Assembly (NCBI GenBank): GCA_964616425.1
Contig: CAZTQY010000002.1
Coordinates: 2,910 to 66,909 of the forward strand
Source of the DNA: an uncultured Candidatus Saccharibacteria bacterium
GTDB taxonomy: Bacteria > Patescibacteriota > Minisyncoccia > Phycocordibacterales > DATDWN01
Reading direction: 5' to 3'
Length of the DNA stretch: 64,000 bases
In this document: one piece after another, positions 12,330-42,270 of the stretch
Layout: each line of letters opens with the position of its first letter
Numbering within the stretch: position 1 is the first letter of the stretch
Position numbers and translations under genes: made by a program
The notes under the pieces: generated by a model
Seen by the model: the letters and a program-made list of their open reading frames with translations, nothing else
Told to the model about the DNA's origin: nothing
Databases searched by the model: none

Positions 12330-12420
12330 ACTAATGTGCCACTTAGTACTTCCAATTTCTAATCGCTCTACTCAAGAAATTTAGGTCGCTCAAACAATGC
12401 TCCAGGCTTCTTTCTGTTCG
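12330..12420 (+). repeat. Diverged copy of the dispersed intergenic GUAC-hairpin repeat family
   Basis: cacttagtacttcc...ggtcgctcaaacaatgctcc resembles ggagtacatttgtacaccttggtcgtaaacaaatcctgcg of the 42165 copy. Confidence 0.3.
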
Positions 12421-12509
12421 TCGTTGTTTTCTAATTTCCTGCGCAGGTCTATAAAAAATATAGAAAATTCTACTTTGGAGATTTTAGAATCAAATGTTAG
12501 TATATTGTC

Positions 12510-13970
12510 ATGGCATCACTTGAAGAAATAAAGCAGGGACGACTTGCAAAGCTACAAATCTTAAAAGACAAAGGTATTAACCCGTATCCTGCATCAGTTC
12601 CTAGAGATTTTTCTATTAGTTACTTTAGGGAAAATTTTGATTCAAAGGTTTCTGAAGCCGGCAAAGTTTCTATCGCTGGAAGAGTTATGGCCTTGAGAGG
12701 TCAGGGAGCGATACTTTTTGCTGTACTTTTTGATGGGACTGAAAAAATTCAAGCAATAATAAAAAAAGACACCTTAACTGATGAAGTCTTTTCTCTTTTT
12801 GTCGATACAGTAGATATTGGAGATTTTATTTCTGTTACAGGAACTCCAATGCTTTCGAAAACTGGTGAACAGAGTGTTATGGCTGAGTCTTGGGTAATGG
12901 CTGGAAAGACACTGCTTCCTTTGCCTGAAAAATGGCACGGACTACAGGATGTTGATGAGAGATACAGAAAGCGATACTTAGACTTCCTTATGGATGACGA
13001 TTTGCGAGCTTTGATCGTAAAGAAATCAAAGTTCTGGTCAGTGGCTAGAGATTTTCTAAACAAAGAAGGTTTCCTTGAGGTAGAGACTCCAACACTAGAG
13101 GTAACTACTGGTGGAGCCGAAGCTAGACCTTTTAAAACACATCATAACGACTTTGATCTAGATGTTTTTATGCGGATATCGGTTGGTGAGTTGTGGCAGA
13201 AGAGACTGATGTCTGCTGGTTTCGAAAAAACATTTGAGTTGGGAAGAGTATATAGAAACGAAGGTTCATCTCCTGAGCATTTGCAAGAATTCACAAACCT
13301 TGAGTTTTACGCTTCTTTCATGACTTTTGAAGATGGAAAAGAGTTAGTCAAAAAACTTTATAAAAAATTAGCAGAAGATACTTTTGGTAAAACAGAGTTT
13401 GAAACTCGAGGTCACAAGTTTGACCTAGCAGGAGAGTGGGAAGAGCTCGACTATGTCGAAACAGTAAAGAAAATGACTGGTGTAGACGTTATAAAAGACA
13501 CTGTAGAAACTTTGCAGGCAAAACTAGATGAGCTAAAAGTAAAATACGATGGAAATAACAGAGAGAGGATGACAGATAGTTTGTGGAAGTACTGTCGAAA
13601 ATCTATCGCAGGCCCAGCGTTTCTAGTAAACCATCCAAAACTAGTTGCGCCTCTTTCAAAGGAACATCCAGAAAATTCAAACCTTACAAAAACATTTCAA
13701 GTGATCCTGGCTGGTAGTGAACTTGGTCGTGCACATGCAGAACTTAATGATCCGATAGACCAAGCGCAGAGGTTTAGTAAACAAAAGGAACTTATCGAAG
13801 GGGGAGATGAAGAGGCAATGATGTCAGACGATGAGTATGTTGAAATGCTCGAGTATGGAATGCCCCCTACATTTGGTTTCGGCTTTGGAGAGAGACTCTT
13901 TGCATTCCTTGCGGATAAACCGTTACGAGAGTTGCAAACCTTCCCACTAATGCGCCCAAAATCCGAGTAA
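12510..13970 (+). CDS. lysS: Lysyl-tRNA synthetase, class II
   Basis: 486 aa with an N-terminal OB-fold region and class II catalytic motifs. Confidence 0.9.
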   Translation: MASLEEIKQGRLAKLQILKDKGINPYPASVPRDFSISYFRENFDSKVSEAGKVSIAGRVMALRGQGAILFAVLFDGTEKIQAIIKKDTLTDEVFSLFVDTVDIGDFISVTGTPMLSKTGEQSVMAESWVMAGKTLLPLPEKWHGLQDVDERYRKRYLDFLMDDDLRALIVKKSKFWSVARDFLNKEGFLEVETPTLEVTTGGAEARPFKTHHNDFDLDVFMRISVGELWQKRLMSAGFEKTFELGRVYRNEGSSPEHLQEFTNLEFYASFMTFEDGKELVKKLYKKLAEDTFGKTEFETRGHKFDLAGEWEELDYVETVKKMTGVDVIKDTVETLQAKLDELKVKYDGNNRERMTDSLWKYCRKSIAGPAFLVNHPKLVAPLSKEHPENSNLTKTFQVILAGSELGRAHAELNDPIDQAQRFSKQKELIEGGDEEAMMSDDEYVEMLEYGMPPTFGFGFGERLFAFLADKPLRELQTFPLMRPKSE

Positions 13971-14043
13971 AATTATCTCATCTACGCGACCTTATTTTCT
14001 TATGAGCAATGCGAATTAGAAAATGGAAGTACTCTTGTGGTGT

Positions 14044-14128
14044 GTTGTTGCTGTTCAATTTTATTCATTCACCGTACGTCAAAGTACGGCTCACTCACAA
14101 AATCTCCAGCGCCTAGCATCTGAGGCAA
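14044..14128 (+). repeat. Dispersed intergenic repeat (GUAC-hairpin family), copy downstream of lysS
   Basis: gttgttgctgttcaatttt...accgtacgtcaaagtacggctcactcacaaaatctccagcgcctagcatctgaggca. Near-identical to the copy at 35326-35410. Confidence 0.7.
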
Positions 14129-14144
14129 TTTAACTCAGATTAGA

Positions 14145-14170
14145 GACCACCAAAGTAGGTGGTTTTTTGG
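14145..14170 (+). terminator. Intrinsic terminator after lysS
   Basis: gaccacc-aaagta-ggtggt followed by tttttt. Confidence 0.7.
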
Positions 14171-14179
14171 TACTCAAAA

Positions 14180-14580
14180 TCATCTATTGACACAATCTGC
14201 TGGAGGTGTATAATATTATATGTGAATGGAAGAGGTGGCGTAAACGTGAACCTTTGGCGATATTCGCGGAGGATGGCGGTTACGCAGAAATACATCATTC
14301 CAATGTCACACCAGCTTGCGGAGGCTTCCAAATCGTCCTTACAGCCTTAGTTGTTCGGTCGATAAATAGATTCGCAGGCTGGAGTTCTTCTCAGGCATCA
14401 GTTCTTCCGAACAGGAGGTGCTCGTTGTATGAGTTTGGTTCCGGCAGGATGTAGGCCTGTCGGCAGAGATGGGGCCTGTTGTACCCATATAAGTTCTGTT
14501 CCGCAGGTGGGTGTCCACAATACACCAGGCACGGCCCCACCTGCGGAAATCTACAAGCTGACTTCGGTCGGCTTTTTTCG
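14180..14580 (+). ncRNA. Probable structured non-coding RNA gene of unidentified class (candidates: RNase P RNA, tmRNA, 6S)
   Basis: About 400 nt at roughly 55% GC in a 35% GC genome, with only short overlapping ORFs. Bounded by the lysS terminator upstream. Ends with an 11-bp stem (ccgcaggtggg/cccacctgcgg) plus an agctgac-ttcg-gtcggc-tttttt terminator at 14556-14579. Confidence 0.5.
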
Positions 14581-14605
14581 TATCTGAATTCCCAAAATAG
14601 AGCGA

Positions 14606-14801
14606 AATCATGAGTTTTTAAAACCCTGCGGAAGCAATTAGCAAATAACGACAAAGATAAAGTAAGCCTGAAGCATCTACCCCGCAGGGGCGACCAAAGG
14701 GAGTCTGCGTAAGGCTACGTATCGAGGAGATTAGTTGCTTGATTGCTGAGCAAGAGCAAAAATTCAACAGAATTTTATGTGTGTTTTAAAAACTCATGAT
14801 T
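14606..14801. repeat. Element bounded by a 19-bp perfect inverted repeat enclosing about 158 nt of GC-rich sequence
   Basis: aatcatgagtttttaaaac (14606-14624) and gttttaaaaactcatgatt (14783-14801). Inner cctgcgg...ccgcagg complementary pair. Confidence 0.55.
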
Positions 14802-14844
14802 GAGCCAAAGTTATCCACTTTTTTGTGGATGTTTTTGGTAGACA

Positions 14845-14890
14845 GTGGGAAGTAGTGGTATATAATGTTATCTAAGTGGGAAGTAGTGGG
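14845..14890 (+). promoter_or_regulatory. mra promoter with direct GTGGG repeats (probable MraZ operator) flanking a tatataat -10 box
   Basis: gtgggaagtagtgg (14845-14858), tatataat (14859-14866), gtgggaagtagtggg (14876-14890), 30 nt upstream of mraZ. Confidence 0.6.
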
Positions 14891-14919
14891 AAACGCCAAA
14901 AAATTAAAATAATAAAATC

Positions 14920-15354
14920 ATGCTTATAGGAGAATACACACATAGCATAGATGATAAAAATAGGCTTTCTCTTCCTGCAAAATTTCGAACAGAGCTTGGT
15001 AAAAAAATAGTTGTTACTCAAGGTTTGGATAACTGTCTTTGGGTTTTCAAACATGTAGAGTGGCAAAAGATTGAAGAGAAGTTAAATCAATCTTCAATCG
15101 GTCAAGCTGATAATCGAAGTTTTAACCGCTTGATGTTTTCTAGTGCAGTGGAGGCCGAAGTAGATTCTATCGGTCGAATACTTGTTCCAGAATTTTTAAG
15201 AGACAGAGCAAATTTAAAAAATAAAGTAGTAGTTATCGGGGTCTCTAGTCGAGTTGAAATTTGGAACGAGAAGACTTGGAGCGACTATAAGAAAGTCGTT
15301 GAAAAACAAGCTGATGCACTGGCAGAAAAGTTAGGCCAAGTTGGAGTCATATAA
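14920..15354 (+). CDS. mraZ: Transcriptional regulator MraZ
   Basis: 144 aa. The duplicated DxxxR motif region (IDDKNRLSLPAKFR ... VDSIGRILVPEFLR) is typical of MraZ. Confidence 0.9.
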   Translation: MLIGEYTHSIDDKNRLSLPAKFRTELGKKIVVTQGLDNCLWVFKHVEWQKIEEKLNQSSIGQADNRSFNRLMFSSAVEAEVDSIGRILVPEFLRDRANLKNKVVVIGVSSRVEIWNEKTWSDYKKVVEKQADALAEKLGQVGVI

Positions 15355-15356
15355 AT

Positions 15357-16277
15357 ATGATTCATAAGACTGTTCTTTTACATGAAGCTATAGATGGATT
15401 GGATATCAAAAATGGTGACATTTTTGTTGACGGTACATTGGGAGGAGGCGGACATAGTGAGGAAGTAGCAAAAAGGTTTGGTAATTCTGTTGTCATGATC
15501 GGAATTGACCTTGATCCTGAAGCAATAGAACGTGCCTCTGCACGACTTTCCCCACTAAATCCAAACATACAATACATTCATGGCAGTTTTCGCAACATAG
15601 ATAATCTTTTGGAGACATCTGGTATCAAAAGTGCAGATAAAATTTTGCTTGATATTGGACTTTCTTCAAACCAGTTCGAGGATTCTGGTCGAGGTTTCTC
15701 ATTTCAAAAGGATGAGCCTCTGATAATGTCATTCAAAAAGGATTTAAAACAGGAAGACCTTACCGCGAGAGAAATCGTTAACACTTGGGATTTAGAGAAT
15801 ATATCTACTATCCTCAAGAGCTATGGTGAAGAGCAGTTTGCTTGGAAAATTGCCAAGGCGATAGTAGCTAGAAGAGAGATAAAACCGATTGATACTACAT
15901 TTGATCTGGTTGAAATCATAAAAATAGCCACTCCAAAGTGGTATCACCACAAAAGAATTCACCCAGCTACAAAAACATTTCAAGCTTTACGTATAACTGT
16001 AAATGATGAGATAGAGAGTTTGAAGGATGGTGTTGCAAAAGGGTTTAGTATTCTAAATCCTGGAGGTAGACTGGCGGTCATATCATTCCACAGCATCGAG
16101 GACAGAGTAATAAAAAATTTTTATAGAGATAGAGACAAGGAAGGTTTAGGTAAGGTGATTACAAAAAAACCCATAATACCTACTGAGGCGGAAATAGCAG
16201 AAAATCCTAGATCACGAAGTAGTAAATTGCGAATAATAGAGAAAACAACCGTGCGAAGCCGAGCAGTGGTCGCATGA
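15357..16277 (+). CDS. rsmH: 16S rRNA m4C1402 methyltransferase RsmH (MraW)
   Basis: VDGTLGGGGHS SAM-binding motif, position after mraZ. Confidence 0.9.
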   Translation: MIHKTVLLHEAIDGLDIKNGDIFVDGTLGGGGHSEEVAKRFGNSVVMIGIDLDPEAIERASARLSPLNPNIQYIHGSFRNIDNLLETSGIKSADKILLDIGLSSNQFEDSGRGFSFQKDEPLIMSFKKDLKQEDLTAREIVNTWDLENISTILKSYGEEQFAWKIAKAIVARREIKPIDTTFDLVEIIKIATPKWYHHKRIHPATKTFQALRITVNDEIESLKDGVAKGFSILNPGGRLAVISFHSIEDRVIKNFYRDRDKEGLGKVITKKPIIPTEAEIAENPRSRSSKLRIIEKTTVRSRAVVA

Positions 16278-16286
16278 CCAAATATA

Positions 16287-16598
16287 ATGACAGAAAAAGT
16301 ATTACAAATAAATAATGAGAAGACTATATTCTGGAGTATTTTGGCACTCTTGCTGTTATCTTTTGGTTTCTATATGTATTTTATAAATGCAACAGTACAT
16401 AATGTAGTTGCAAGACAAAATCTTGAAGCTGAAGCATCAAATCTAACACTGACTATTGGCAACCAAGAATTTCAATATATAACAAGCCGTAACAATGTAA
16501 CATTAGCCCTCGCACATTCAATGGGTTTCAAAGATGTTTCAGAAAAAACATTTATATCAAGAGATGGTGGCAAGCAAGTTTCTCTTCTTTCCAGATAA
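16287..16598 (+). CDS. FtsL-like single-pass membrane protein of the dcw cluster
   Basis: 103 aa with a single TM, sitting between rsmH and ftsI. Confidence 0.45.
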   Translation: MTEKVLQINNEKTIFWSILALLLLSFGFYMYFINATVHNVVARQNLEAEASNLTLTIGNQEFQYITSRNNVTLALAHSMGFKDVSEKTFISRDGGKQVSLLSR

Positions 16599-16656
16599 AA
16601 TATTTTTATATTTCATAGTTTTTTGATAAGATAGATATTGCTATTTTCTTTTTAAT

Positions 16657-18363
16657 ATGAAGAACAACTACATACTCAGAATTCGTATAATCTCTCTAGC
16701 TATTTTTGCGTTTGCTCTGTTACTTATCGGTCGATTGTATGTATTGCAGATAGTAAGAAACGATAACTATATAAATAAAGCAGACAGGCAGTATTCATCT
16801 TCGGCAAATAAAGTGTTTAGTCGGGGAACAATATATTTTCAAAATAAAGATAAAACTCTAGTATCAGCTGCCACACTAAAATCTGGTTTTATCGTTGCTA
16901 TAAATCCAGAAATTTTACAAGAGCCTGATGATGTTTGGTTGAAGATAAAAGATTTAATTTCGATTGAGCATGATGCTTTCATATTGAAGGCTAACAAAAA
17001 AAATGATCCATATGAGGAGATTGCTACTCATGTGGACGAGGCTGTTGGAAAACAGATTTCTGATTTAAATATAAAAGGTTTACAAGTATATAAAGAGAGA
17101 TGGAGGTTTTATCCAGGAGGTAACACAGCGGCTCATGTTTTAGGTATTTTGGGGTACAAGGGTGATGAATATGCTGGAAGGTATGGTCTTGAGAGTAAAT
17201 ATGAGACATTACTTGAGCGAAAAGATGGAGCGTATGTTAATTTTTTTGCTGAAATGTTTTCTGATATAAAAGCCGCGACTAATCCAAGTGAAGAAAATGA
17301 AGGAGATATAGTTACGACCATAGAACCTACTGTACAGACTTTTCTTCAGTCTGTTTTGGCTAGCACAACGGAAAAATGGGACTCAGATTTGACTGGAGGC
17401 ATAATAATGGACCCAAAAACCGGAGAAATAATCGCCATGGAAACTTATCCGACTTTTGATCCAAATAACTCTGGTGAACAAAAGAATTCTGCAATATTCT
17501 CAAACCCTCTGGTGGAAAATGTGTATGAAATGGGTTCTATTATTAAACCGCTAACAGTGGCTGCTGGAATTGATCTTGGAGTTATAACATCCAAGTCAAC
17601 GTACTACGACAAAGGTTTTGTGATGATAAGTGGAAAAAAGGTTTCTAACTTTGATGGTAAAGAAAGAGGAGTTGTTAATATGCAAGATTTACTCTCTCAG
17701 TCACTAAATGTTGGTGCTGCATATGTAGAAAAGCTAATAGGTAATAAAAAATTTGCTGAGTATATTAACTTGTATGGTTTGGGAGAGAAAACTGGTATTG
17801 AACTTCCAAATGAAGCAAAAGATTTGATATCTAGTCTAAAAGGAAATATTGATATTGATTTTGCAACTGCATCTTTTGGTCAGGGTATAGCTCTTACTCC
17901 AGTTTCAACTATTAGAGCACTGTCAGTCATTGCAAACGGTGGTTTTCTTGTTAACCCTCACTTGGTTAAAAGTATAAATTATAAAATCGGTGTTTCAAAA
18001 GATACTCCTATAGATCCAGGCAAATATGTTTTAAAGAGAGAGACCACTGAAGAGGTTGCGAGGATGATGACATACAGTGTGGACAATGTGCTTTCTAATG
18101 GTACACTCAAAATACCTAACTATAGTGTGGCTGCAAAGACAGGTACAGCACAGATAGCCAAGGAGGGTGGGGGTGGGTACTATGATGACCAGTTTCTACA
18201 CTCATTTGTAGGTTTTTTCCCATCGTATAACCCAAGATTCATTATATTTTTGTACACTTTGCATCCAAAAGGAGCTCAGTTCGGTTCAGAAACACTAACA
18301 CACCCTTTTATGGATATAGTCAACTTCCTCATTAACTACTACGAAATCCCCCCAGACCGTTGA
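16657..18363 (+). CDS. ftsI: Division-type penicillin-binding protein (FtsI/PBP3-like transpeptidase)
   Basis: N-terminal TM, SIIK (SxxK), SLN and KTGT motifs, dcw position. Confidence 0.8.
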   Translation: MKNNYILRIRIISLAIFAFALLLIGRLYVLQIVRNDNYINKADRQYSSSANKVFSRGTIYFQNKDKTLVSAATLKSGFIVAINPEILQEPDDVWLKIKDLISIEHDAFILKANKKNDPYEEIATHVDEAVGKQISDLNIKGLQVYKERWRFYPGGNTAAHVLGILGYKGDEYAGRYGLESKYETLLERKDGAYVNFFAEMFSDIKAATNPSEENEGDIVTTIEPTVQTFLQSVLASTTEKWDSDLTGGIIMDPKTGEIIAMETYPTFDPNNSGEQKNSAIFSNPLVENVYEMGSIIKPLTVAAGIDLGVITSKSTYYDKGFVMISGKKVSNFDGKERGVVNMQDLLSQSLNVGAAYVEKLIGNKKFAEYINLYGLGEKTGIELPNEAKDLISSLKGNIDIDFATASFGQGIALTPVSTIRALSVIANGGFLVNPHLVKSINYKIGVSKDTPIDPGKYVLKRETTEEVARMMTYSVDNVLSNGTLKIPNYSVAAKTGTAQIAKEGGGGYYDDQFLHSFVGFFPSYNPRFIIFLYTLHPKGAQFGSETLTHPFMDIVNFLINYYEIPPDR

Positions 18364-18380
18364 AATTACTTTATATACTT

Positions 18381-18468
18381 CGTTGTGATTAGATTTTATT
18401 CGATCACTGTACGTTAGAGTACAGCTCACTCATAAAATCTCTCACGCCTTGTCTCTAAAGCAATTTCC
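18381..18468 (+). repeat. Dispersed intergenic repeat (GUAC-hairpin family), copy downstream of ftsI
   Basis: ...ttcgatcactgtacgttagagtacagctcactcataaaatctctcacgcc... The stem ctgtac/gtacag shows compensatory changes relative to ccgtac/gtacgg in the other copies. Confidence 0.65.
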
Positions 18469-18491
18469 ATGGTCTGATCATTATAAATTTT

Positions 18492-20132: not shown

Positions 20133-20151
20133 AATATTAATTATAACATGT

Positions 20152-20333: not shown

Positions 20334-20460
20334 CTTACAGTTTCAGTACACCTTTTCTATTTTTTGTTTCTAACCGAACAAAAAATTATCAAAGGTTTTC
20401 GATTCCCTAAACAAAACATGTTTTGTTTTAAGGTCACAAAATTTCGTGACCTCAATTTTG

Positions 20461-20532
20461 TGACCTTACCGGGAATCGAACCCGGATTTAAGCCTTGAGA
20501 AGGCTTCGTCCTAACCGTTAGACGATAAGGCC
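20461..20532 (-). tRNA. tRNA-Glu, anticodon CUC
   Basis: 72-nt cloverleaf read on the minus strand: GGCCTTA / D-arm GTCT..GGAC / anticodon stem AAGCC-TTCTCAA-GGCTT / T-arm CCGGG-TTCGATT-CCCGG / TAAGGTC-A. CCA is not encoded. Confidence 0.65.
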
Positions 20533-20784: not shown

Positions 20785-20789
20785 GCAGC

Positions 20790-25837: not shown

Positions 25838-25962
25838 ATTATAAAAGTCGGTAAAATTAAACTAAGAAAATAGCTTTAGATGCTAGGCGCGAGCGAGTAC
25901 TACGACCAAGCTGTACATTTAGTACTGTGCGTGGAGTATACGGAGTGAGCAACAACGCAGAT
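25838..25962 (-). repeat. Dispersed intergenic repeat (GUAC-hairpin family), minus-orientation copy downstream of yqeY
   Basis: The reverse complement reads gttgttgctcactccgtatactccacgcacagtactaaatgtacagcttggtcgtagtactcgctcgcgcctagcatct. It combines motifs of the 14044 and 37128 copies. Confidence 0.55.
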
Positions 25963-25974
25963 GAAGCTATTTTA

Positions 25975-26430
25975 TTAGTTTAGTAGTTCGTCAACTACTG
26001 CTTTGACTGTATCTCCATCTGCCTTTCCTTTGAGATCTTTCATGAGAGCACCCATGAACATTCCAGCTTTTGATTTATCAACTGCTCCCATCTCTGCCAT
26101 TTTAGCTTTTGCAATTGTCATTACATCTTCTTTACTCATCATTGCTGGTAGGTATGTTTCTAGTATTGCGAGTTCGGCTTTTTCGTCCTCAGCGAGTTCT
26201 GGTCGTCCACCACTAACGAACTGTTCGATTGAATCCTTTCTCTGCTTTACAGCGCGACGTATAACCGCAAGTGCATCTTCATCAGATAACTCATCTTGTG
26301 GCATTTTGCCTAGCTTTACTAACTCGTTTGTAAATGCTGATGAAAGTCCACGAACAACACCAAGCTTTACTGAATCTTTGGCTTTCATAGCTTCTTTCAT
26401 CTGCTCCTTAATATCTATTTGTATTGTCAT
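25975..26430 (-). CDS. yqeY: GatB/YqeY-domain protein
   Basis: 151 aa with a YqeY-like helical domain (…LSDEDALAVIRRAVKQRKDSIEQF…). Confidence 0.7.
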   Translation of the reverse strand: MTIQIDIKEQMKEAMKAKDSVKLGVVRGLSSAFTNELVKLGKMPQDELSDEDALAVIRRAVKQRKDSIEQFVSGGRPELAEDEKAELAILETYLPAMMSKEDVMTIAKAKMAEMGAVDKSKAGMFMGALMKDLKGKADGDTVKAVVDELLN

Positions 26431-29375: not shown

Positions 29376-29548
29376 TGTTTACACTCCCTTTACAACATTA
29401 ATAAAAAAATTTCATTACTGCAAATTTTAGAACTTTCAGATTTGGATGAAATTCGAGGCAACCAAGAAAAATAAGAGGAGTCTTATCTAGTATAAGGTGA
29501 CGAGAATTTTTTGATGGTTAACGAAGAAGTTCGCCAAATATGAAAGCT

Positions 29549-30160
29549 CTACTGTCGGTTCTTCAAAGCGTTTTTAATTGTGTCGCTATCAGAGTATTCC
29601 AGTTCTGTTCCTGTTGATAATCCACGACCGAGGGTTGATATTTTGATACTATTTTTATCAGCAAGTGGTTTTAAAATTTGTTCGAGATAGGTTAGAGTGT
29701 TTTCTCCCTCTGGGTTGTAACTTAATGCGAGGATAATTTCTGAAAGCCCGTTCGAAACTTTCTTTTCAATATTTTCTATAAGTTCCTTTTGCCGTACTCG
29801 TTTTTCCGGATTTTTTTCAAGTATTGGAACTGTGCCTCCGAGTACAAAATAGTAACCGTTGTAGAAATGTGTTTTTTCTATATTTTCAAAATCAACATCA
29901 TGAGAAACTATCATTAGTGACTTTTTGTCTCGACTGCTATCTCGACAGATAGGACATGTATTCGAGTTGTCATTTAAAAAGAATCTAAAACATGTATCAC
30001 ATGAGTGAACGGTTGCTCGTACGTCGTTAATGAGTCTAGCTAGGTCGTTTGCGTATGCGGGGTTTCTGTTAAGTAAAAAATACACAAACCTTTTGGCCTG
30101 TCTCGGTCCTATTCCAGGAAACTCTTTGAAGAGTTCTATGAGTCTCTGAGTATTATCCAT
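29549..30160 (-). CDS. recR: Recombination protein RecR
   Basis: C4 zinc finger CDTC...CPIC, Toprim region, 203 aa. Confidence 0.9.
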   Translation of the reverse strand: MDNTQRLIELFKEFPGIGPRQAKRFVYFLLNRNPAYANDLARLINDVRATVHSCDTCFRFFLNDNSNTCPICRDSSRDKKSLMIVSHDVDFENIEKTHFYNGYYFVLGGTVPILEKNPEKRVRQKELIENIEKKVSNGLSEIILALSYNPEGENTLTYLEQILKPLADKNSIKISTLGRGLSTGTELEYSDSDTIKNALKNRQ

Positions 30161-34069: not shown

Positions 34070-35305
34070 TTGAATGCAATGAGAGACTTTTTTAAGTATA
34101 GAGCATATGTTCTAGTAGCCATCGCAGTTGTGGGTGGCATATTTTTTTCTGGGTACTATTTTGGTAGAAACAGTATGTCAGACGAAGAGAAAATTTTTTC
34201 TTTAATGAACAAAACTGATTCAGAAAATAAAATTGATTTTGCTCCATTTTGGAAAGCTTGGAATATAATCAATGAAAAATATGTTCCAACAAATAGCACA
34301 ACTACTGAAAAGGTAGACGACCAAGATAGAGTTTACGGTGCTATTGAGGGTATGGTTAAGTCACTAGGTGATCCGTACACGACTTTTTTCCCACCGGTTG
34401 AATCAAAACAGTTTAATGAGACTATTGCAGGACAAATCGAGGGTGTAGGTATGGAAGTTGGAATGAAAGATGATGTTCTTACTGTTATTGCTCCAGTAAA
34501 AGGTACACCAGCGTACAAAGCAGGAATAAAAGCGGGGGACAAAATACTAAAAATAGATGATTTAATTACTTCTGGACTAAGTGTTGAAGAAGCTGTCAAA
34601 AATATTCGTGGCAAGAAGGGAACTGCAGTTAAACTTACTCTTTTGAGAGATGGGGTAAAAGATCCATATGTGATTGATGTTGTTAGGGATGTAATAAATA
34701 TGCCTACGGTTGATACGGAGACAAATGGTGATGTATTTATTATTCGTCTATATTCATTCTCTGCTATTTCCCCAAACCTTTTCAGAGATGCGCTACGTGA
34801 CTTTGTGCAGTCTGGAAAATACAAATTGATTATTGATTTGCGCGGAAACCCTGGAGGATACCTAGAAGCTGCTCAAGACATGGCTTCATGGTTTCTACCA
34901 ACAGGAAAGGTTATCGTTAGTGAGGATTTTAGAGACGAGAAAGATAAACAAATTTTCCGATCTAGAGGATACAATATATTTAACGAAAATCTTAAACTAG
35001 TCATTTTGATTGATGGAGGTTCCGCTTCTGCTTCAGAGATTCTGGCTGGAGCACTTCACGACCATGGTATTGCAACACTTGTTGGTTCTCAGTCATTTGG
35101 AAAGGGTTCAGTTCAGGAACTCGTGGATATAACAGAAGATACAAGTCTTAAAGTTACTATTGCAAAATGGCTTACGCCAAATGGAATATCTATTTCACAC
35201 AACGGACTTACTCCAGATGTTGAAGTTAAACTAGATGAGAAGAAATATCTGGAAGATAAGACCGATACTCAACTAAACAAAGCATTAGAAATTCTTTCAA
35301 AATAA
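34070..35305 (+). CDS. ctpA: C-terminal processing peptidase (S41 family, Prc/CtpA)
   Basis: N-terminal TM, PDZ domain, and GSASASEILAGAL with catalytic Ser and Lys (…SFGKGSVQ). Confidence 0.85.
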   Translation: MNAMRDFFKYRAYVLVAIAVVGGIFFSGYYFGRNSMSDEEKIFSLMNKTDSENKIDFAPFWKAWNIINEKYVPTNSTTTEKVDDQDRVYGAIEGMVKSLGDPYTTFFPPVESKQFNETIAGQIEGVGMEVGMKDDVLTVIAPVKGTPAYKAGIKAGDKILKIDDLITSGLSVEEAVKNIRGKKGTAVKLTLLRDGVKDPYVIDVVRDVINMPTVDTETNGDVFIIRLYSFSAISPNLFRDALRDFVQSGKYKLIIDLRGNPGGYLEAAQDMASWFLPTGKVIVSEDFRDEKDKQIFRSRGYNIFNENLKLVILIDGGSASASEILAGALHDHGIATLVGSQSFGKGSVQELVDITEDTSLKVTIAKWLTPNGISISHNGLTPDVEVKLDEKKYLEDKTDTQLNKALEILSK

Positions 35306-35325
35306 TTCCAAAAACACCCCATATA

Positions 35326-35410
35326 CGTTGTTGCTGTTCAATTTTTCTCATTCACCGTACGTCAAAGTACGTATCACTCGCAAAATTTCCAGCGCCTAGT
35401 ATCTGAGGCA
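35326..35410 (+). repeat. Dispersed intergenic repeat (GUAC-hairpin family), copy downstream of ctpA
   Basis: cgttgttgctgttcaatttttctcattcaccgtacgtcaaagtacgtatcactcgcaaaatttccagcgcctagtatctgaggca. Confidence 0.7.
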
Positions 35411-35438
35411 TTTTTGAAATTATTACGTTTATGCTAAT

Positions 35439-35891: not shown

Positions 35892-35898
35892 ATATAAG

Positions 35899-35940: not shown

Positions 35941-35955
35941 GTAGTTCGGCGGTTG

Positions 35956-36333
35956 TTACTTGGTTTTGCGCCTCTTCCTGTCGGTGAAGTCCTGCTGGAG
36001 CCAAGCGTCCACGTCGACTCCCCGAGAATCAAGGATGGAGCACCAAACCATGATGGCTGTGTCTCCGATGCCTTCGTACTCCATCAACTGATGGAGGTCA
36101 ATCCTCCGGGCGAGCTCGTGCACTCCCTTGGGTTTGAACCTTTGCAAAACGAGATCGAGATTGGCGGCAGCGAAGAAGTTCGCAGTTTCCGCCTTCACAA
36201 CCATGTCACGTCGGGTGAACTGGTCTTTGCCGACCTGTACAATCGTCTCAGGGAGACGATCGACGTAGTTCTTACCGATGTGGTCTTTCCAGCGTTTGTG
36301 TGCCATGTACGCCACTCCTTTGAGGCGTTTCAA
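35956..36333 (-). CDS. Hypothetical GC-rich protein (about 55% GC)
   Basis: 125-aa ORF, MKRLKGVAYMAHKRWKDHIGKNYVDRLPETIV... Composition differs from the flanking ribosomal genes. The plus-strand ORF 35953..36336 is its mirror artefact. Confidence 0.45.
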   Translation of the reverse strand: MKRLKGVAYMAHKRWKDHIGKNYVDRLPETIVQVGKDQFTRRDMVVKAETANFFAAANLDLVLQRFKPKGVHELARRIDLHQLMEYEGIGDTAIMVWCSILDSRGVDVDAWLQQDFTDRKRRKTK

Positions 36334-36408
36334 TGATAATTATATCACTTTATATGTACATGTCAAGTACTTTTAAGTAAGAAAAAACGCCCAACTGGGC
36401 GCTAGTTC

Positions 36409-36681
36409 CTATATAACGTGGATGACTTTCTTTACGTGAGTCGTGTTGTCGAAATGCATCTTTCGCTTTGTTCCAAACTTAACTTTTCCGGATATAAGAG
36501 AAAAGATAGTGTGGTCCTTGCCCATAGATACTCCTTTTCCAGGAAGAACGTCAGTTCCTCTCTGTCGGATAAGTATTGAGCCGGCCTGTGCCAAATCTCC
36601 TTCGGTGATTTTAACACCCAAGTATTTTGGATTTGAATCTCGGCCGTTTTTGGTTGTTCCCGCGGACTTTTTATGTGCCAT
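36409..36681 (-). CDS. rpmA: 50S ribosomal protein L27
   Basis: [24 protein letters not shown], 90 aa. Confidence 0.9.
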
Positions 36682-36707
36682 GACTAATTAATATATGATA
36701 AAATGTT

Positions 36708-37112
36708 GTGGATATGAGTATAAATGATTTATATGAAAAAATCAAGCCTTTTTATACCATACTTCTAGTGTTGGTTATTTGTGGGATAATCGCCTCATTA
36801 GTTAAGCTATCTATGCTTGAAAATGGTAAAACTGGCATTAAAATCAGTTATCCAAATGCTGAAATGGCTAGTTTGGTCCTAGTTTCTACTCAGGATGAAG
36901 CCTCTAATGGTGTAGCCTCTAGTCTAACTCAAGATCCATCTTCTACTCAGTCAGGAGAGGTTATTGGTTCAAAGTCTGGAAAGAAATATTATTTTCCATG
37001 GTGCGGAACTGTAAAAAGAATTAAACCAGAGAATCAAGTTCATTTTGTTTCGATTGATGAGGCAAAAAAAGCGGGCTTTACACCGGGAGGAAATTGTAAA
37101 GGCCTAAAGTAG
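36708..37112 (+). CDS. Membrane-anchored protein with a C-terminal Cys-containing Ada-like metal-binding motif
   Basis: N-terminal TM, low-complexity linker, then C-terminal YYFPWCG...EAKKAGFTPGGNC. Confidence 0.35.
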   Translation: MDMSINDLYEKIKPFYTILLVLVICGIIASLVKLSMLENGKTGIKISYPNAEMASLVLVSTQDEASNGVASSLTQDPSSTQSGEVIGSKSGKKYYFPWCGTVKRIKPENQVHFVSIDEAKKAGFTPGGNCKGLK

Positions 37113-37127
37113 TCCGGTCCTTTTTCC

Positions 37128-37232
37128 TAAATTTCTTTGTTGTTCGTTTGCGTTTGCTCCACGCGCAGTATACTTATACAGCTTGGTCGCAAGCCGCACT
37201 CACGCCTCGAACTTTAGAAAAAATTTACCGGA
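37128..37232 (+). repeat. Dispersed intergenic repeat (GUAC-hairpin family, second subtype)
   Basis: tttgttgttcgtttgcgtttgctccacgcgcagtatacttatacagcttggtcgcaagccgcactcacgcctcgaacttta. Confidence 0.65.
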
Positions 37233-37293
37233 CTCAATTTAAATAATCCACTTGTTTATTTTAAGTTCATGAAAAATATGTTACAGTATTTTT

Positions 37294-38886
37294 ATGCAAT
37301 ATCTTACATTTATAGCGAGAGTTAAGTCTCTTTTTACAAAGAAACGAGTCATTTGGGGTTTAGTAATAATTTTCCTTATTTTCATTGGATGGTTTTTCTT
37401 TATTAGAAAGCCAAACAATTCTAGTGTGCAAACAGCTCAAGTTGTTAAAAAAGATATAAAAAGAACTGTTCTAACAACCGGTCAAGTTGTGAGTTCAATC
37501 GATCTCAGTTTAAGTTTCCAATCCAGCGGTGTGGTTAGAAGAATCAACGTAAAAGAAGGGGATAACGTATATGCAGGTCAGGTTTTGGCCGTGCTTGATC
37601 AAGGTAATGTATCTGGAAGTCTAGAGAGTGCAAAAGGTGCTCTAGCTCAGGCCAAGGCAAATTATGAGAAAGTTAAGGCTGCTGCAAGTGCCCAAGATAT
37701 AGCTGTCAGTCAGGCGTCTGTTGATTCCGCAACGGTAACTCTGGAGAATGCAAAACAGGATCTGATTAATGAAATTACAAATGCTTATAACAATGCAAAT
37801 ACGGCTATCTTGTCTTATACGAACATTTTGTACTCAAATCCACAGTCAAATTATCCTCAGTTTAGTATTGCTGGCACAGTTCAAACAAATGCTCAAGCAG
37901 TTAGTAATGCCAATAATGATCGTGTAGTTATAAATGGTTTACTAGCATCTTGGCAAGTCAGCGTCTACTCTTTGACAGAAGCAAATATGGAGCAAGTTGC
38001 TACAGAATCACTAAATAATTTGTTGAAAGTTGGAAGTTATTTAAATAATATAATTAATATTTTAACTTCGTACACACAGGTTGCAACTGGTGGAAGTCAA
38101 ACATCTCTTACTACATATCAAACTGGAGTTGCTACTGCAAAAAGTACAGTTGATACATCATACACAGCTATATTGAATGACCTCCAAGCGATAAAAACAG
38201 CTAGTTATGCATTGGCTTCAGCTAAGGCTTCTCTGGCTCTAAAACAATCTCCCGCTAGACCAGAAGATATCAGTATTGCAGAGGCGCAGGTTCAGTCTGC
38301 ACAAGGTCAGTACGATTTGGCTTTATCGGCATTAAATAACACAGTGATCGTCGCGCCAGAAAGTGGAACTATTACACAAGTAGATATAAAACTTGGTGAA
38401 CAGGCCACTGCAATGAAAGAAGTTATAAAACTTCTAAATGTTGGACAGCTACACACAGAGGCGCAGGTTAGTGAGGCTGATATTGCTTCAGTTTTTGTTG
38501 GACAAACGATAGACAACACTTTTGATGCTTTGGGTCCAGATAAACATTTTGAAAGTAAAGTTTTGACAGTAAATCCAGCTGCGACACTCGTCTCTGGTGT
38601 GGTTAACTACAAAATAACAGGAAGTTTGGAAAATATTCCAGAAGTTAGACCTGGTATGACATCCAACATGACTATTCTTGTTGCAGAAAAGAAAGATGTA
38701 TTAGTTGCTCCTTCATCTTCGATAATAAATCAAGATGGTAAGAAATTTGTGAGAATAATCGATGATCCAAAAACAAAAACATATCATCAGGTTGAAGTAA
38801 CTACTGGACTTGAAGCAGATGGTGGGGAAGTTGAGGTGTTATCTGGATTGACTACAGACAATCAAGTTGTGACTTACATTAAATAA
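37294..38886 (+). CDS. HlyD/MacA-family periplasmic adaptor (membrane fusion protein)
   Basis: N-terminal TM, biotinyl/lipoyl-like hairpin (VVRRINVKEGDNVYAGQVLAVLD), long coiled-coil, C-terminal beta-barrel domain. Confidence 0.8.
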   Translation: MQYLTFIARVKSLFTKKRVIWGLVIIFLIFIGWFFFIRKPNNSSVQTAQVVKKDIKRTVLTTGQVVSSIDLSLSFQSSGVVRRINVKEGDNVYAGQVLAVLDQGNVSGSLESAKGALAQAKANYEKVKAAASAQDIAVSQASVDSATVTLENAKQDLINEITNAYNNANTAILSYTNILYSNPQSNYPQFSIAGTVQTNAQAVSNANNDRVVINGLLASWQVSVYSLTEANMEQVATESLNNLLKVGSYLNNIINILTSYTQVATGGSQTSLTTYQTGVATAKSTVDTSYTAILNDLQAIKTASYALASAKASLALKQSPARPEDISIAEAQVQSAQGQYDLALSALNNTVIVAPESGTITQVDIKLGEQATAMKEVIKLLNVGQLHTEAQVSEADIASVFVGQTIDNTFDALGPDKHFESKVLTVNPAATLVSGVVNYKITGSLENIPEVRPGMTSNMTILVAEKKDVLVAPSSSIINQDGKKFVRIIDDPKTKTYHQVEVTTGLEADGGEVEVLSGLTTDNQVVTYIK

Positions 38887-38894
38887 AATAAATA

Positions 38895-39611
38895 ATGCCA
38901 ATAATACGTACAGAAAACCTACAAAAAGAATATTTTAATGAAGGGGTTGGTACTCCAGTATTGTTTGGAGTTAACTTTATTATGGAAAAAGGTGAGTTTG
39001 TTGCAATCATGGGCCCTTCAGGTTCAGGAAAATCAACTCTCATGCATATACTAGGCTTTCTAGACAAGGCTACTGCTGGTTTGTATGAGTTTGAAGGACA
39101 GGACACGAGAAACTTTGACAAAGATTATCTAGCGAAACTTAGAAATGAGCGAATAGGTTTCGTCTTCCAATCTTTTAATCTACTTTCTAGAACAACAGTT
39201 TTGGACAACGTTAAACTTCCGCTGATGTATAGCAATAAAACAAACCATGATGACTTGGCTAAAAAAGCTTTGGCTGATGTCGGGCTTTCTCATCGTTTGG
39301 GTTACTATACCAACCAGATTTCTGGTGGAGAAAAACAGAGAGTTGCTATTGCTAGAGCTTTGGTTAACGATCCAGCTGTTATTTTTGCAGATGAACCAAC
39401 TGGAAACTTGGATTCAAAGTCGGGTAATGCCGTGCTGTCTATTCTTCAGGAACTCAACGCAAAAGGTCACACTATTATTTTGGTTACTCATGAGATGGAC
39501 ACCGCCAATCACGCAAAGAGAATTATTCGTGTAAAGGATGGAATGATTGTGGCAGATGAATTGGTAAAGCATAGAACATTTGCTACAGCAGGAAGCGAGT
39601 TGAAGAAATAG
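38895..39611 (+). CDS. ABC transporter ATP-binding protein (MacB/LolD type)
   Basis: GPSGSGKST Walker A, LSGGEKQR signature, FADEPTGNLD Walker B. Confidence 0.9.
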   Translation: MPIIRTENLQKEYFNEGVGTPVLFGVNFIMEKGEFVAIMGPSGSGKSTLMHILGFLDKATAGLYEFEGQDTRNFDKDYLAKLRNERIGFVFQSFNLLSRTTVLDNVKLPLMYSNKTNHDDLAKKALADVGLSHRLGYYTNQISGGEKQRVAIARALVNDPAVIFADEPTGNLDSKSGNAVLSILQELNAKGHTIILVTHEMDTANHAKRIIRVKDGMIVADELVKHRTFATAGSELKK

Positions 39612-39625
39612 TTTCTTAAAACAAA

Positions 39626-40897
39626 ATGGGTTTTACATCTACCATAAAAGCAACAGTAAAAAACTTACTGGCCAGAAAGGGTCGAACTTTTTTGACGATG
39701 CTCGGTATCATTATTGGTGTTGCTGGAGTGATAATTATTATCTCACTTGGTGCTGGTGCTCAAAGTTTAGTTTTGGGACAAGTAAATAAACTTGGTTCAA
39801 ACCTGCTAAGTATTCAACCTGGAAAAAGTGATACAAACGGTCCACCAGCCCAAGTGTATGGGGTTATTATAACTTCTCTTATCGAAGATGATGCGATGGC
39901 TCTCCGATCACAAGTGCCCCACGCTTCAGCTGTTAATTCACTCGTAAGAGGTGTTGGAACTGTTACCTGGCAAAATAAAACTATTGATACCAATTTTGTT
40001 GGAACAGACTCTGGTTATTCAGCTGTAGTTGATTTTACAATGAGTGATGGAGCTTTTATGAACCAGTCAGAGGCAGATGGTGGGGCGAACGTGGTAGTTC
40101 TCGGTTCTACTGTTGCAGACTCACTTTTCAAGGGAACTGGTGTAGATCCAATAGGTCAAGTTATAAAAGTAAAAACGTCGACAGCATCCAACTCAGGGAG
40201 TTTGGGTATACCACTTCGTATAGTCGGAGTGGTGAACCCACGAGGTAGTGCATTTTTCCAGGACCAAGATGACCAAATATTTGTTCCTCTTGCTATTGGC
40301 CAAAGTCAGTTGTTAGGAATCCGCTATCTTCAAGTAATAAACATGAAAGTGGATAAGGCAGATAATATTGATCAGACTATAGTTGATGTGACTAGAGTTC
40401 TAAAACAAAGACATCATATCTTAACTGATGATAATATTGATTTTACTGTTAGAAACCAAGCTACAGCTATCGGACTTCTAACAACTATAACAAACGCATT
40501 GAGTTTGTTTCTAACTTCTATGGCCGCTGTATCTCTACTGGTTGGTGGAATTGGTATTTTAAATATAATGTTGGTAACTGTTGCAGAGAGGACAAGAGAG
40601 ATTGGTCTTCGCAAAGCGGTGGGAGCAACAAATAAAAATATTATGAAGCAGTTTTTGATTGAGTCTGGTATTTTAACAGCACTTGGTGGTCTTATTGGTA
40701 TAATAGTCGGTGTCATCATTTCCTATTTAATGTCTGTTTTGATGAACTATCTCGGTTATGACTGGGCATTTGTTATATCTCTTTGGTCGGTCGTTTTAGC
40801 AATCTCAGTGTCGGTTTTGACTGGTGTTATATTCGGACTTTATCCATCATATAAAGCATCAAAGCTTGATCCGATAGATGCTTTAAGATACGAATAA
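39626..40897 (+). CDS. ABC transporter permease (FtsX/MacB-like)
   Basis: N-terminal TM, large periplasmic domain, C-terminal FtsX 3-TM bundle. Confidence 0.8.
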   Translation: MGFTSTIKATVKNLLARKGRTFLTMLGIIIGVAGVIIIISLGAGAQSLVLGQVNKLGSNLLSIQPGKSDTNGPPAQVYGVIITSLIEDDAMALRSQVPHASAVNSLVRGVGTVTWQNKTIDTNFVGTDSGYSAVVDFTMSDGAFMNQSEADGGANVVVLGSTVADSLFKGTGVDPIGQVIKVKTSTASNSGSLGIPLRIVGVVNPRGSAFFQDQDDQIFVPLAIGQSQLLGIRYLQVINMKVDKADNIDQTIVDVTRVLKQRHHILTDDNIDFTVRNQATAIGLLTTITNALSLFLTSMAAVSLLVGGIGILNIMLVTVAERTREIGLRKAVGATNKNIMKQFLIESGILTALGGLIGIIVGVIISYLMSVLMNYLGYDWAFVISLWSVVLAISVSVLTGVIFGLYPSYKASKLDPIDALRYE

Positions 40898-40898
40898 A

Positions 40899-42143
40899 AT
40901 GATTAAACTACTAAAACAATCCATCAAAGCATTGAGCGCCAACAAGGGCAGAACTTTTTTGACGATGCTTGGTATTATCATTGGTATCGCAACTGTTGTG
41001 TTGGTGCTTTCTGCTGGTGAAGGTTTTAGAAGTCTGATCAACTCACAGGTAGCAACACTTGGAACAAACACTCTTTTCATACAAACACGTGTTCCTCCAA
41101 CAACGAAAAACCGAGCTAGTAACAGTTCGGGTCCTGGAGGTTCTTTTACTGGAGTAACAATAACAAGTTTCAAAGAACGTGATCTAGATAATATTAAAAA
41201 ACTTTCCAACGTAGAGGGTGCATATGGAATTGTGACAGGCCAAATCTCATCAAGTTACAGAAGTAACAAAAAGACAGTTATATATTATGGTGCTGGTGCA
41301 GAGCGATTTAGTATTGATAAAAGTGAACTATCATCTGGAAGATTTTATACAGAGAGTGAGGACAGTGGAGGGGCTCAAGTAGTAATACTCGGTAGCAACG
41401 TTGCTAGTGATTTGTTCGGCCAAGACGAACCTGTTGGAAAACTTTTGCGTCTCGGCAGTTTAAATTTTCTAGTTATTGGTGTTTACAAACCACAGGGGGC
41501 TTTGAGTGGAAACGATGATTTAGTTTTCATGCCATTAACAACCGCTCAGAAAAAAATGTTGGGTGTGGATTACATTTCTGTCGGTATAGTTGCTCTCCGA
41601 GACATTAACCTCAGTGACGCAACAGCAGAAGAAATAAAAGCAGTTATGCGAGATAACCATTCTATAACCAACCCTGACAAAGACGACTTTGATGTGCAAA
41701 CACAGGCTCAAGCGCTAGAAACATTCAATACTATTTTTGGTGGCGTGACTTATCTTCTGGTTGCCATAGCCGCGATATCACTTATCGTTGGGGGAGTTGG
41801 GATTATGAACATTATGTACGTTGTTGTGACAGAGAGAACATCTGAAATAGGTTTGAAAAAAGCTATTGGTGCGCGCGAGTCTGATATTTTGAAAGAATTT
41901 TTGCTCGAAGCTGTTTTGGTCACTGTTTTCGGGGGGATAATAGGTCTTTTGTTCGGATCGTTTCTGGGATTTATAATTTCGGTCATTGCTCAGTCGTTTA
42001 ACCTAGAGTGGACATTTTCTGTACCGCTGTATGCCATTTTCATCGCATTCGGAGTTTCTGGAGCGATCGGTATTTTCTTTGGAGTTTTTCCGGCGAGGTC
42101 TGCCGCCAAGATGGATCCGATTGAAGCACTTCGCTATGAATAG
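40899..42143 (+). CDS. ABC transporter permease (FtsX/MacB-like), second copy
   Basis: Same architecture as the previous gene. Translationally coupled to it. Confidence 0.8.
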   Translation: MIKLLKQSIKALSANKGRTFLTMLGIIIGIATVVLVLSAGEGFRSLINSQVATLGTNTLFIQTRVPPTTKNRASNSSGPGGSFTGVTITSFKERDLDNIKKLSNVEGAYGIVTGQISSSYRSNKKTVIYYGAGAERFSIDKSELSSGRFYTESEDSGGAQVVILGSNVASDLFGQDEPVGKLLRLGSLNFLVIGVYKPQGALSGNDDLVFMPLTTAQKKMLGVDYISVGIVALRDINLSDATAEEIKAVMRDNHSITNPDKDDFDVQTQAQALETFNTIFGGVTYLLVAIAAISLIVGGVGIMNIMYVVVTERTSEIGLKKAIGARESDILKEFLLEAVLVTVFGGIIGLLFGSFLGFIISVIAQSFNLEWTFSVPLYAIFIAFGVSGAIGIFFGVFPARSAAKMDPIEALRYE

Positions 42144-42164
42144 TTAAAACTTCCAAAACTGGCG

Positions 42165-42270
42165 AATTTCTATGTTCTCGAATTTGTTTCCTTCACGCGG
42201 AGTACATTTGTACACCTTGGTCGTAAACAAATCCTGCGAACTACGAACTTCACTCAGTTTGTGAAAGTTT
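42165..42270 (+). repeat. Dispersed intergenic repeat (GUAC-hairpin family, second subtype)
   Basis: aatttctatgttctcgaatttgtttccttcacgcggagtacatttgtacaccttggtcgtaaacaaatcctgcgaactacgaacttcact. About 75% identical to the 37128 copy. Confidence 0.65.

Follow-up and report, generated by a model that had tools for sequence, protein, structure and literature searches.

Several families of imperfect-palindrome repeats are known from the intergenic DNA of bacteria. [quoted passage not shown] The Correia/NEMIS elements of Neisseria and the RUP elements of pneumococcus are polymorphic non-coding repeats of 100-160 nucleotides (nt) with terminal inverted repeats and long-hairpin transcripts, and Correia hairpins are substrates of RNase III (PMC2229807). 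YPAL elements of Yersinia (YPAL/RU-2) are reported to target dyad symmetries (PMC2229807). REP and REPIN elements are dispersed extragenic palindromes whose single-stranded DNA (ssDNA) or RNA hairpins are kept by compensatory changes, and two reports describe REP elements at mRNA 3′ ends as able to stabilize the upstream mRNA (PMC3116915, PMC3733652). Integron attC sites are imperfect palindromes that lie directly 3′ of open reading frames (ORFs), in the orientation of the ORF, with structure conserved beyond sequence. Here we analyze a stretch of 64,000 nt (hereafter, the window) from an uncultured Candidatus Saccharibacteria bacterium (assembly GCA_964616425.1, contig CAZTQY010000002.1, positions 2,910 to 66,909 of the forward strand), in which a hairpin element of ~125 nt recurs just 3′ of genes.

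Genomes of the Candidate Phyla Radiation (CPR, Patescibacteria) are very small and tightly packed. To our knowledge, almost no non-coding elements have been described in them, and our literature search found no paper describing such repeats in this group. We propose that six elements in the window belong to a family of imperfect-palindrome intergenic repeats that has not been described before, similar in kind to ERIC, Correia and other MITE-like repeats, with a role that we infer to lie at the level of mRNA; we put the probability of this reading at roughly 0.55. The window has a G+C content of 38% and carries housekeeping genes, including lysS, two PBP2-type genes, a Mur ligase gene, an S41 peptidase gene, rplI, yqeY and macAB. 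The extents of the copies, traced by a structure walk along the hairpin, and the features nested in or adjoining them are as follows; scores are those of a covariance model.

13960-14141, plus strand: copy 1 (A-type), 3′ of the lysyl-tRNA synthetase gene (lysS); 5′ arm AATCCGAGTAAAATT with stop codon TAA at 13968-13970, 3′ tail AACTCAGATT ending at 14141; 89 bits, E 1.2e-16 over 14017-14142.
13987-14043, plus strand: hairpin module of 57 nt, set within the 5′ arm of copy 1 and flanked by CTCATCTACG and GTTGTTGCTG.
14072-14089, plus strand: apical GUAC hairpin of copy 1 (CCGUAC GUCAAA GUACGG), the tip of the long hairpin and the feature first noticed.
~14145-14170: separate hairpin and T-tract terminator directly 3′ of copy 1.
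18352-18477, plus strand: copy 2 (A′ subtype), between a penicillin-binding protein (PBP) gene and the Mur ligase gene; stop codon TGA at 18361-18363 in the 5′ arm; 124.9 bits; orthologue in L008 94% identical.
35298-35427, plus strand: copy 3 (A-type), in the junction from the S41 peptidase gene to rplI; 5′ arm with stop codon TAA at 35303-35305; base of the 3′ arm overlapping the -35 region of the conserved rplI promoter; 124.1 bits.
37111-37236, plus strand: copy 4 (B-type, tip GUAU/AUAC), 3′ of a gene encoding 134 amino acids (aa); stop codon TAG at 37110-37112, helix base AGUCCGGU/ACCGGACU; followed by the promoter of the downstream membrane-fusion-protein (MFP) gene; 67.9 bits, E 9e-12.
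42146-42271, plus strand: copy 5 (B-type), 3′ of a MacB-like permease gene; stop codon TAG at 42141-42143, 2 nt ahead of the helix base; orthologue at L067 17769-17894 95% identical.
25856-25984, minus strand: copy 6 (B-type), 3′ of the minus-strand yqeY gene; tandem stop codons TAA TAA, tail GCUAUUUUCUUAGUUUA complementary to the gene end; 101.6 bits.

An nhmmer profile of the six copies recovered all of them as true family members (E 3.9e-16 to 6.3e-24), and the best further match in the window had an E-value of 4.2. The covariance model found the same six and no others (E 1e-11 to 7e-25). In a non-circular test, a profile built from three A-type copies recovered the minus-strand copy at E 1.2e-5, and searches with single sequences linked copy 6 to copy 4 (E 3e-6) and copy 4 to copy 5 (E 1.5e-5). 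The copies form two subfamilies of three members each. A-type copies (14044, 18381 and 35326, by the start positions first given) are 75-91% identical among themselves, and the cores of B-type copies (37128, 42165 and, on the minus strand, 25838) are only 52-75% identical to the others. The element comprises ~111 nt of its own sequence, or ~125 nt including a base that is specific to the flank. The initial annotation had counted seven copies, of which the six above proved to be related; the stretch at 12330-12420 was matched by no profile or covariance model, stood apart from the other six in a MAFFT alignment of the seven reported stretches, and was rejected as a copy, as it belongs to a separate 250-nt unit (12215-12460, minus strand). 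The extents first given were also too short, as each copy is one long hairpin that takes in the upstream stop codon.

In minimum-free-energy folds, every copy adopts the same single long imperfect hairpin with the GUAC stem at its tip. Fold z-scores ranged from -5 to -12 across copies; the copy in L005, for example, folds at -49.5 kcal/mol in the sense orientation (z -9.9) and at -65.2 kcal/mol in antisense (z -11.6). We assessed the structure in a 17-copy alignment with a 42-pair structure against 500 column shuffles. Standard pairs occupied 82.0% of cells versus 68.1 ± 0.9% after shuffling, a value that none of the 500 shuffles reached, and paired cells fell to 34-40% when partners were slid. 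Changes on both sides were found in 27 of the 42 pairs (18.2 ± 2.0 in shuffles), and the covariation score was 0.355 versus 0.133 in shuffles. The tip helix (helix 4) was 92% paired, with double-sided changes in three of its six pairs, bearing out the covariation that had been reported for the GUAC stem, and the tip and loop are the most conserved part of the element, even in a distant copy (L003). These results support a dispersed family with a maintained structure. The earlier claim of a selected RNA structure holds for the structure itself but less well for the sense RNA as its selected form, since the antisense strand folds better.

The head and tail had been recognized without their pairing with each other and with the end of the upstream gene. 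Similarity among copies extends 5′ to the upstream stop codon, with the consensus stop-TAA-AAT-nnC-CTCATCTGCG-TTGTTGCTG, and this 5′ end pairs with the 3′ end, GCATCTGAGGCAATTTTA. In A-type copies the common ends AAAATyACCUCA and UGAGGCAAUUUU pair. From copy to copy these ends change in concert (GGC/GCC, GGU/ACC, ACC/GGU), and further out each copy has arms of its own, with its 3′ tail being the reverse complement of its own gene end. Examples are the gene end and tail in L005 (AGACAAGTAAAATT / AATTTTACTTGTCT), in L004 (CCTGACAGGTAAAAT / ATTTTATCTGTCAGG) and in copy 2 of the window (CAGACCGTTGAAATT / AATTTCCATGGTCTG), where the G of the TGA stop codon pairs with a compensating C in the tail. 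The outermost ten pairs, which are copy-specific, were 88.4% paired over 14 independent sites, compared with 47.6 ± 3.3% when flanks were swapped between sites (maximum 62% in 5000 permutations). These comparisons demonstrate that the helix runs from the last 6-12 nt of the upstream coding sequence through the stop codon to the GUAC tip, and that the outer closing helix varies from copy to copy, complementing the flank of the copy to which it belongs. In nearly all copies the stop codon lies in the helix base or at most 3 nt from it, and in 10 of 16 complete copies the element's own end opens with the stop codon as its first three bases. Overall, TAAAAT follows 8 of the 62 gene ends in the window. 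This hexamer is the one that begins most element copies, and TAAAATG recurs as a stop/start junction of adjacent genes (e.g., 40895-40901 and 57547-57553).

Placement is stricter than had been claimed when the element was described as lying 3′ of a gene in that gene's orientation: 20 of 20 copies, representing ~14 independent sites in the census described below, are located between co-directional genes and point as those genes do. In 9 of 15 copies, 4-23 nt separate the hairpin's 3′ foot from the next start codon, and several copies sit inside conserved operons, 8-23 nt ahead of the next start codon. Other copies are followed by promoter-like sequence and, in the case of copy 1, by its separate hairpin and T-tract. 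No sigma-70-type promoter match was found within the element; perfect sigma-70 promoters do occur at other places in the window. A small ORF within it was considered and rejected, as the subfamilies differ by insertions or deletions of 1-2 nt, which makes a conserved peptide unlikely. The A-type cores in L005 (542-658), L010, L006 (3481-3597) and copy 1 contain no stop codon in any sense frame, and in several A-type copies the frame past the upstream stop codon is open for 37 codons, closing at a TAA in the 3′ arm (ATT TAA). The stop-free frames may be compositional, the unpaired sense strand being rich in pyrimidines.

An exact-pattern scan with the A-type tip, which covered one genome per species, returned 12 loci, 11 of them in four assemblies titled 'uncultured Candidatus Saccharibacteria' and the twelfth on a contig titled Gammaproteobacteria that carries rplJL. 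A covariance model (R1) was run over 716 kb comprising the window, the pattern-scan loci, 52 metagenome loci with relatives of the PBP (28-90% identity) and the syntenic loci of three relatives, and it identified 20 copies: exactly six in the window, 13 in L001-L012, which come from five genome assemblies, and one in L067. The copy on the contig titled Gammaproteobacteria (L003, 6552-6677) is distant: its core is 61% identical, but its tip (CTCACCGTACGTTAAAGTACG) is almost unchanged. It is located immediately upstream of rplJ-rplL and is unanchored to the stop codon of any long ORF, and its contig has a G+C content of 43-45%. The title of this contig may reflect a binning error. The closest relatives of the window's S41 peptidase are labelled Parcubacteria, Zambryskibacteria or Paceibacterota by their sources, and we accordingly place the host no more precisely than CPR/Patescibacteria. 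The covariance model found zero copies in ~480 kb from more distant relatives, and in the DNA surveyed the family is confined to a narrow CPR/Patescibacteria clade. One borderline match (L015 6831-6946, E 0.012) comes from a more distant relative, whose PBP is 52% identical, and directly follows a stop codon. The motifs TTCCAAAA, GGCGAAT and CTTCATCCAA in this match are common to B-type copies and to a second hairpin family described below, a hint that the hairpin families form one wider superfamily. Searches of Rfam 15 returned only a tRNA at the gathering threshold, and no match overlapped a copy at E<=5 (window) or E<=10 (12150-14950), so a known RNA family was rejected. An origin from phages or plasmids was likewise rejected, as neither viral contigs nor blastn searches of phage records and of 7.3 Gb of plasmid records gave a match to the element.

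The junctions that follow the S41 peptidase gene (before rplI), the 134-aa gene (before the MFP gene), the MacB gene and yqeY are empty in syntenic relatives (L065, L067, L068; S41 peptidase ~80-87% identical), and in a more distant relative (L014) the PBP stop codon and the Mur ligase start are separated by 8 nt with no element. Absence of the element from the orthologous junctions of relatives indicates that the copies are insertions. Across four genomes, the PBP-Mur ligase junction holds elements of three different subtypes. Identity between orthologous copies is 94-95%, compared with 73-80% for flanking 600-nt coding blocks and 69-85% for adjacent spacer, leaving highly similar elements beside essential genes that have drifted. 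Unexplained conservation of this kind is long known from ERIC. Even at unrelated sites in different species, the cores share 96-100% identity. A near-identical strain, sampled in an aquatic metagenome, differs by five synonymous changes in the last 80 nt of the gene and by only two changes in the 130-nt element, which replace C.A mismatches in the closing helix with U-A and C-G. This pattern of conservation is unlike that of a repeat simply decaying after insertion.

Among the options offered by the initial annotation, a REP/MITE-like repeat fits best, given the empty orthologous junctions and the near-identity of cores at unrelated sites. Bacterial MITEs are small (<200-300 bp), non-coding, multi-copy and variably present at orthologous sites, and the family resembles them in its length of ~125 nt, its 20 copies and its filled and empty orthologous sites (L065, L067, L068, L014). 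ERIC provides a close parallel in size, imperfect palindromy, intergenic location and closure by the element's own ends. The parallel extends to architecture only and crosses phyla. ERIC also has longer variants with extra sequence at one fixed internal position, which the 57-nt module nested in copy 1 recalls; the module occurs in L012 as well, at the same internal position but at a different site in another genome. ERIC occurs in both orientations with TA target duplications, whereas here all copies are gene-oriented and we saw no direct duplication; unlike that of ERIC, the helix here includes the stop codon and its base is copy-specific. Correia/NEMIS and RUP elements share the scale, polymorphism and long-hairpin form of the family, but their fixed terminal repeats match a known insertion sequence (IS) family and are accompanied by TA duplications, whereas the outer arms here vary and no partner IS is known. 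The dyad-symmetry targeting of YPAL may be comparable with an insertion at small hairpins on stop codons; YPAL differs in its direct target duplications of 3-26 bp and in not being AT-rich, and stop-codon anchoring is unreported for it.

The family resembles REP/REPIN elements in being dispersed, extragenic and palindromic, with compensatory changes. A REPIN, however, consists of two short inverted REP palindromes with a GTAG or CGTC head, whereas the arms here are not palindromic; by reading of the sequences, neither head is present at the hairpin foot, CGTC occurring only across the junction of tip stem and loop, and no RAYT gene was seen in the loci examined, which are part of each genome only. 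The element is not a REPIN. Integron attC sites share its position and orientation 3′ of ORFs, and their bottom strand is the functional, better-behaved one, as the antisense strand is the better-folding one here. The attC core sites RYYYAAC...GTTRRRY are absent from both strands by reading, the element ends being TAAAATTACC ... GGCAATTTTA on the top strand, and there is neither a cassette array nor an integrase; the neighbors (lysS, PBP2, Mur ligase, rplI, yqeY, macB) are syntenic in relatives that have no element. The element is not an attC site. The best-supported description is of ERIC-like long-hairpin repeats of CPR bacteria that are anchored on stop codons and set apart from known families by strict gene orientation, a closing helix matched to the gene end, and conservation above that of neighboring genes.

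Under our preferred reading of the family as MITE-like repeats with an mRNA-level role, the element would be transcribed along with the upstream gene and often also with the downstream gene. With the stop codon in the 5′ arm, the base of the hairpin would have to be opened by each ribosome that terminates, and the structure would re-form on untranslated RNA. The most likely effect would be that of a translation-sensitive 3′ or intercistronic hairpin that sets an mRNA processing site or the survival of the upstream segment, acting as a barrier to 3′ exonucleases and/or as a site for double-strand or adjacent single-strand RNases, as has been proposed for ERIC and Correia. Folding would also bring the stop codon near the next start codon in spite of the inserted sequence.

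Several points weigh against this reading. Both co-transcription and any effect on mRNA are predictions. In every copy the sense RNA folds less stably than the other strand, contrary to what selection on a sense-RNA hairpin would predict. No direct target-site duplication was found at the four filled/empty junctions, where the flank is instead repeated inverted, a comparison made between genomes ~75-80% identical in which duplications as short as TA could escape notice. No transposase domain was found in the ten unassigned ORFs of the window or in the gene tables of the syntenic loci (~160 kb of element-bearing DNA), and with neither a target duplication nor a known partner transposase or IS the family falls outside the classical definition of a MITE. 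The conservation of old orthologous copies is unexpected for a purely selfish, decaying repeat. Lastly, gene ends in general showed no excess of pairing with downstream sequence: the mean duplex energy over 62 gene ends was -9.10 versus -9.16 when swapped, and three genes had p<=0.05 versus 3.1 expected, in a test that is crude and has low power for AU-rich stems. A genome-wide habit of gene ends pairing downstream was rejected on this chance-level result.

A possible but unlikely alternative is that the functional form is a bottom-strand ssDNA hairpin recognized by a strand-specific enzyme, such as an HUH/Y1 RAYT or IS200/IS605-type transposase or an attC-like tyrosine recombinase, with the RNA as a by-product; orientation, sequence conservation and the GUAC tip would then be requirements of that enzyme. 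The antisense fold is more stable by 7-22 kcal/mol in 19 of 19 copies, which span all subtypes (A, A′, four B lineages and L003), and this keeps a mechanism acting on single-stranded bottom-strand DNA in play. Mismatches on the sense strand are A.C or pyrimidine-pyrimidine and those on the other strand are G.U and tandem G.A, so that the apparent internal loops of the sense fold (UC/UC, GUUCAUUCA/CUCACUCAC, A.C) become tandem GA/AG and G.U pairs in antisense. The strong conservation of tip and loop out to L003, the near-identity of cores across species, and an attC-like seat 3′ of ORFs in one orientation, with an imperfect palindrome on the 57-141 nt scale, also favor this reading. However, no gene for such an enzyme was found in the DNA examined, a small part of each genome, and the attC core sites and the REP-like palindromic arms and heads are lacking, as described above. 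The neighbors are housekeeping genes in conserved synteny, and the sole minus-strand copy of the window follows its minus-strand gene rather than a replichore, the GC skew keeping one sign across the window. Wobble-type events, counted separately, numbered nine of the A.C type (7 + 2) and four of the G.U type, an asymmetry that is suggestive but not significant and that we did not accept as establishing which strand is functional.

The base specific to each copy would probably have originated by one of two routes: template switching that extends the palindrome into the flank, or insertion into or beside existing small hairpins at stop codons. In the first route, intramolecular template switching would extend the palindrome into the flanking DNA; imperfect inverted repeats are known to mutate in this way, the arms of quasipalindromes being lengthened by template switching (PMC3820800, PMC7202029, PMC8604942). 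This route would explain the uncompensated synonymous changes in the orthologous pairs L011/L009 and copy 1/L006. It would also explain the ability of either flank to act as template, as seen at the S41 site, where the last two codons are unlike those of relatives and complementary to the conserved rplI promoter region. In the second route, the element would enter or adjoin small pre-existing hairpins that overlap stop codons. Hairpins of this kind were seen in L065, L067 and L068, where the S41 and 134-aa junctions are empty, and in the window at 47560-47600. The chance-level result for gene ends in general weakens this route. A bolder proposal, which we regard as doubtful, is that the family is a self-tailoring module whose closing helix is written by templated inverted copying of the flank, burying the stop codon of that gene, and whose core is kept either as a translation-coupled junction switch of the host or as the single-strand substrate of a strand-specific CPR enzyme. 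If this were true, the family would be a dispersed, gene-addressed structural element unlike known repeats with fixed ends.

We consider it improbable that the elements are host cis-regulatory RNAs at gene junctions, acting through shunt-like termination-reinitiation across the helix base or through translation that gates the downstream initiation region. The position of the stop codon in or within 3 nt of the helix base, a next start codon close by (9 of 15 copies), the strict orientation, and conservation far above that of flanking genes would all suit such a device. Yet a promoter or terminator, not a coupled gene, comes after copies 1, 4, 5 and 6, relatives do without the element at the same junctions, the fold leaves the downstream initiation region unsequestered, and the sense fold is the weaker one.

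Termination was one of the roles first suggested, in the form of a terminator lacking a U-tract, and the data speak against it. The element is not an intrinsic terminator, because its 3′ flank is A-rich (e.g., AAAAAAATTT and AAAAATACAA), separate terminators follow it, and canonical terminators occur elsewhere in the window; a terminator scan of the window called none at the elements. A U-tract-less or factor-dependent terminator marking the ends of transcription units is very improbable. The seat just 3′ of genes, the stability of the hairpin, the C-rich and G-poor unpaired sense segments, and the promoter-like sequence for the next gene after four window copies point toward it. These are outweighed by the A-rich rather than U-rich flank, by the separate canonical terminator that follows both copy 1 and its L006 orthologue, by the ordinary hairpin and T-tract terminators that the genome uses elsewhere, and by copies within conserved operons (PBP to Mur ligase) a few nucleotides before the next start; moreover, 125 nt of conserved sequence are not needed for termination. 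That the similarity is a chance or low-complexity effect of AT-rich spacers, as the modest identity of B-type cores to the others and the spurious seventh copy might suggest, is already refuted by E-values that run down to 1e-24 in the window with the next match at ~4, by 14 more copies in other genomes, and by fold z-scores and covariation beyond all shuffles.

This one hairpin family accounts for ~1 kb of the 64-kb window, and other hairpin families add more. The location of the stop codon inside the stem and the gene-matched base make the choice between an mRNA device and an ssDNA parasite testable here. In practical terms, the elements will confuse the prediction of gene ends and terminators in CPR genomes, and they offer a marker for strain typing.

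The window contains further hairpins and neighboring features. The unit at 12215-12460 (minus strand), of ~250 nt and ending in a CCCCAACAGGGG hairpin, is 92% identical to L006 4058-4306 (plus strand), where it occupies a different place and strand relative to lysS; it is unrelated to the family, and a 55-nt hairpin module is all that it has in common with the insertion nested in copy 1 and in L012. A second family of long-hairpin repeats (ATTTGGCGAAC...CATCCAAAT) is present at 11535-11684 (plus strand) and 29417-29565 (minus strand) in the window and at L065 7104-7204. Its members also start at the stop codon, have a copy-specific base and fold more stably in antisense than in sense. L006 lacks it at the orthologous junction, and the stop codon there overlaps the -35 box of the next promoter. 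Additional single long hairpins lie just 3′ of stop codons at 4863-4992, 6086-6284, 7531-7713, 61725-61865 and 47560-47600 (z -2.6 to -10.9). In that at 7531-7713 the stop codon TAG is at the helix base, and that at 47560-47600 is a short AU hairpin whose 5′ arm consists of the coding end and stop codon. No further copies of these single spacer hairpins were found in the DNA examined.

Downstream of copy 1, the region 14187-14582 (plus strand) has a perfect sigma-70 promoter (TTGACA-16-TATAAT, 14187-14214) followed by ~360 nt of G+C-rich sequence and a terminator at 14555-14574, and its RNA folds with a z-score of -4.9. It has no Rfam match at E<=10 and its body is unconserved at the nucleotide level in the syntenic L006 locus (3680-4057). 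This region looks like an undescribed non-coding RNA gene. The only tRNA gene in the 64 kb is a tRNA-Glu (anticodon CUC) at 20460-20532 on the minus strand, and the 280 nt around it are 95% identical to L008, far above the identity of the flanking genes.

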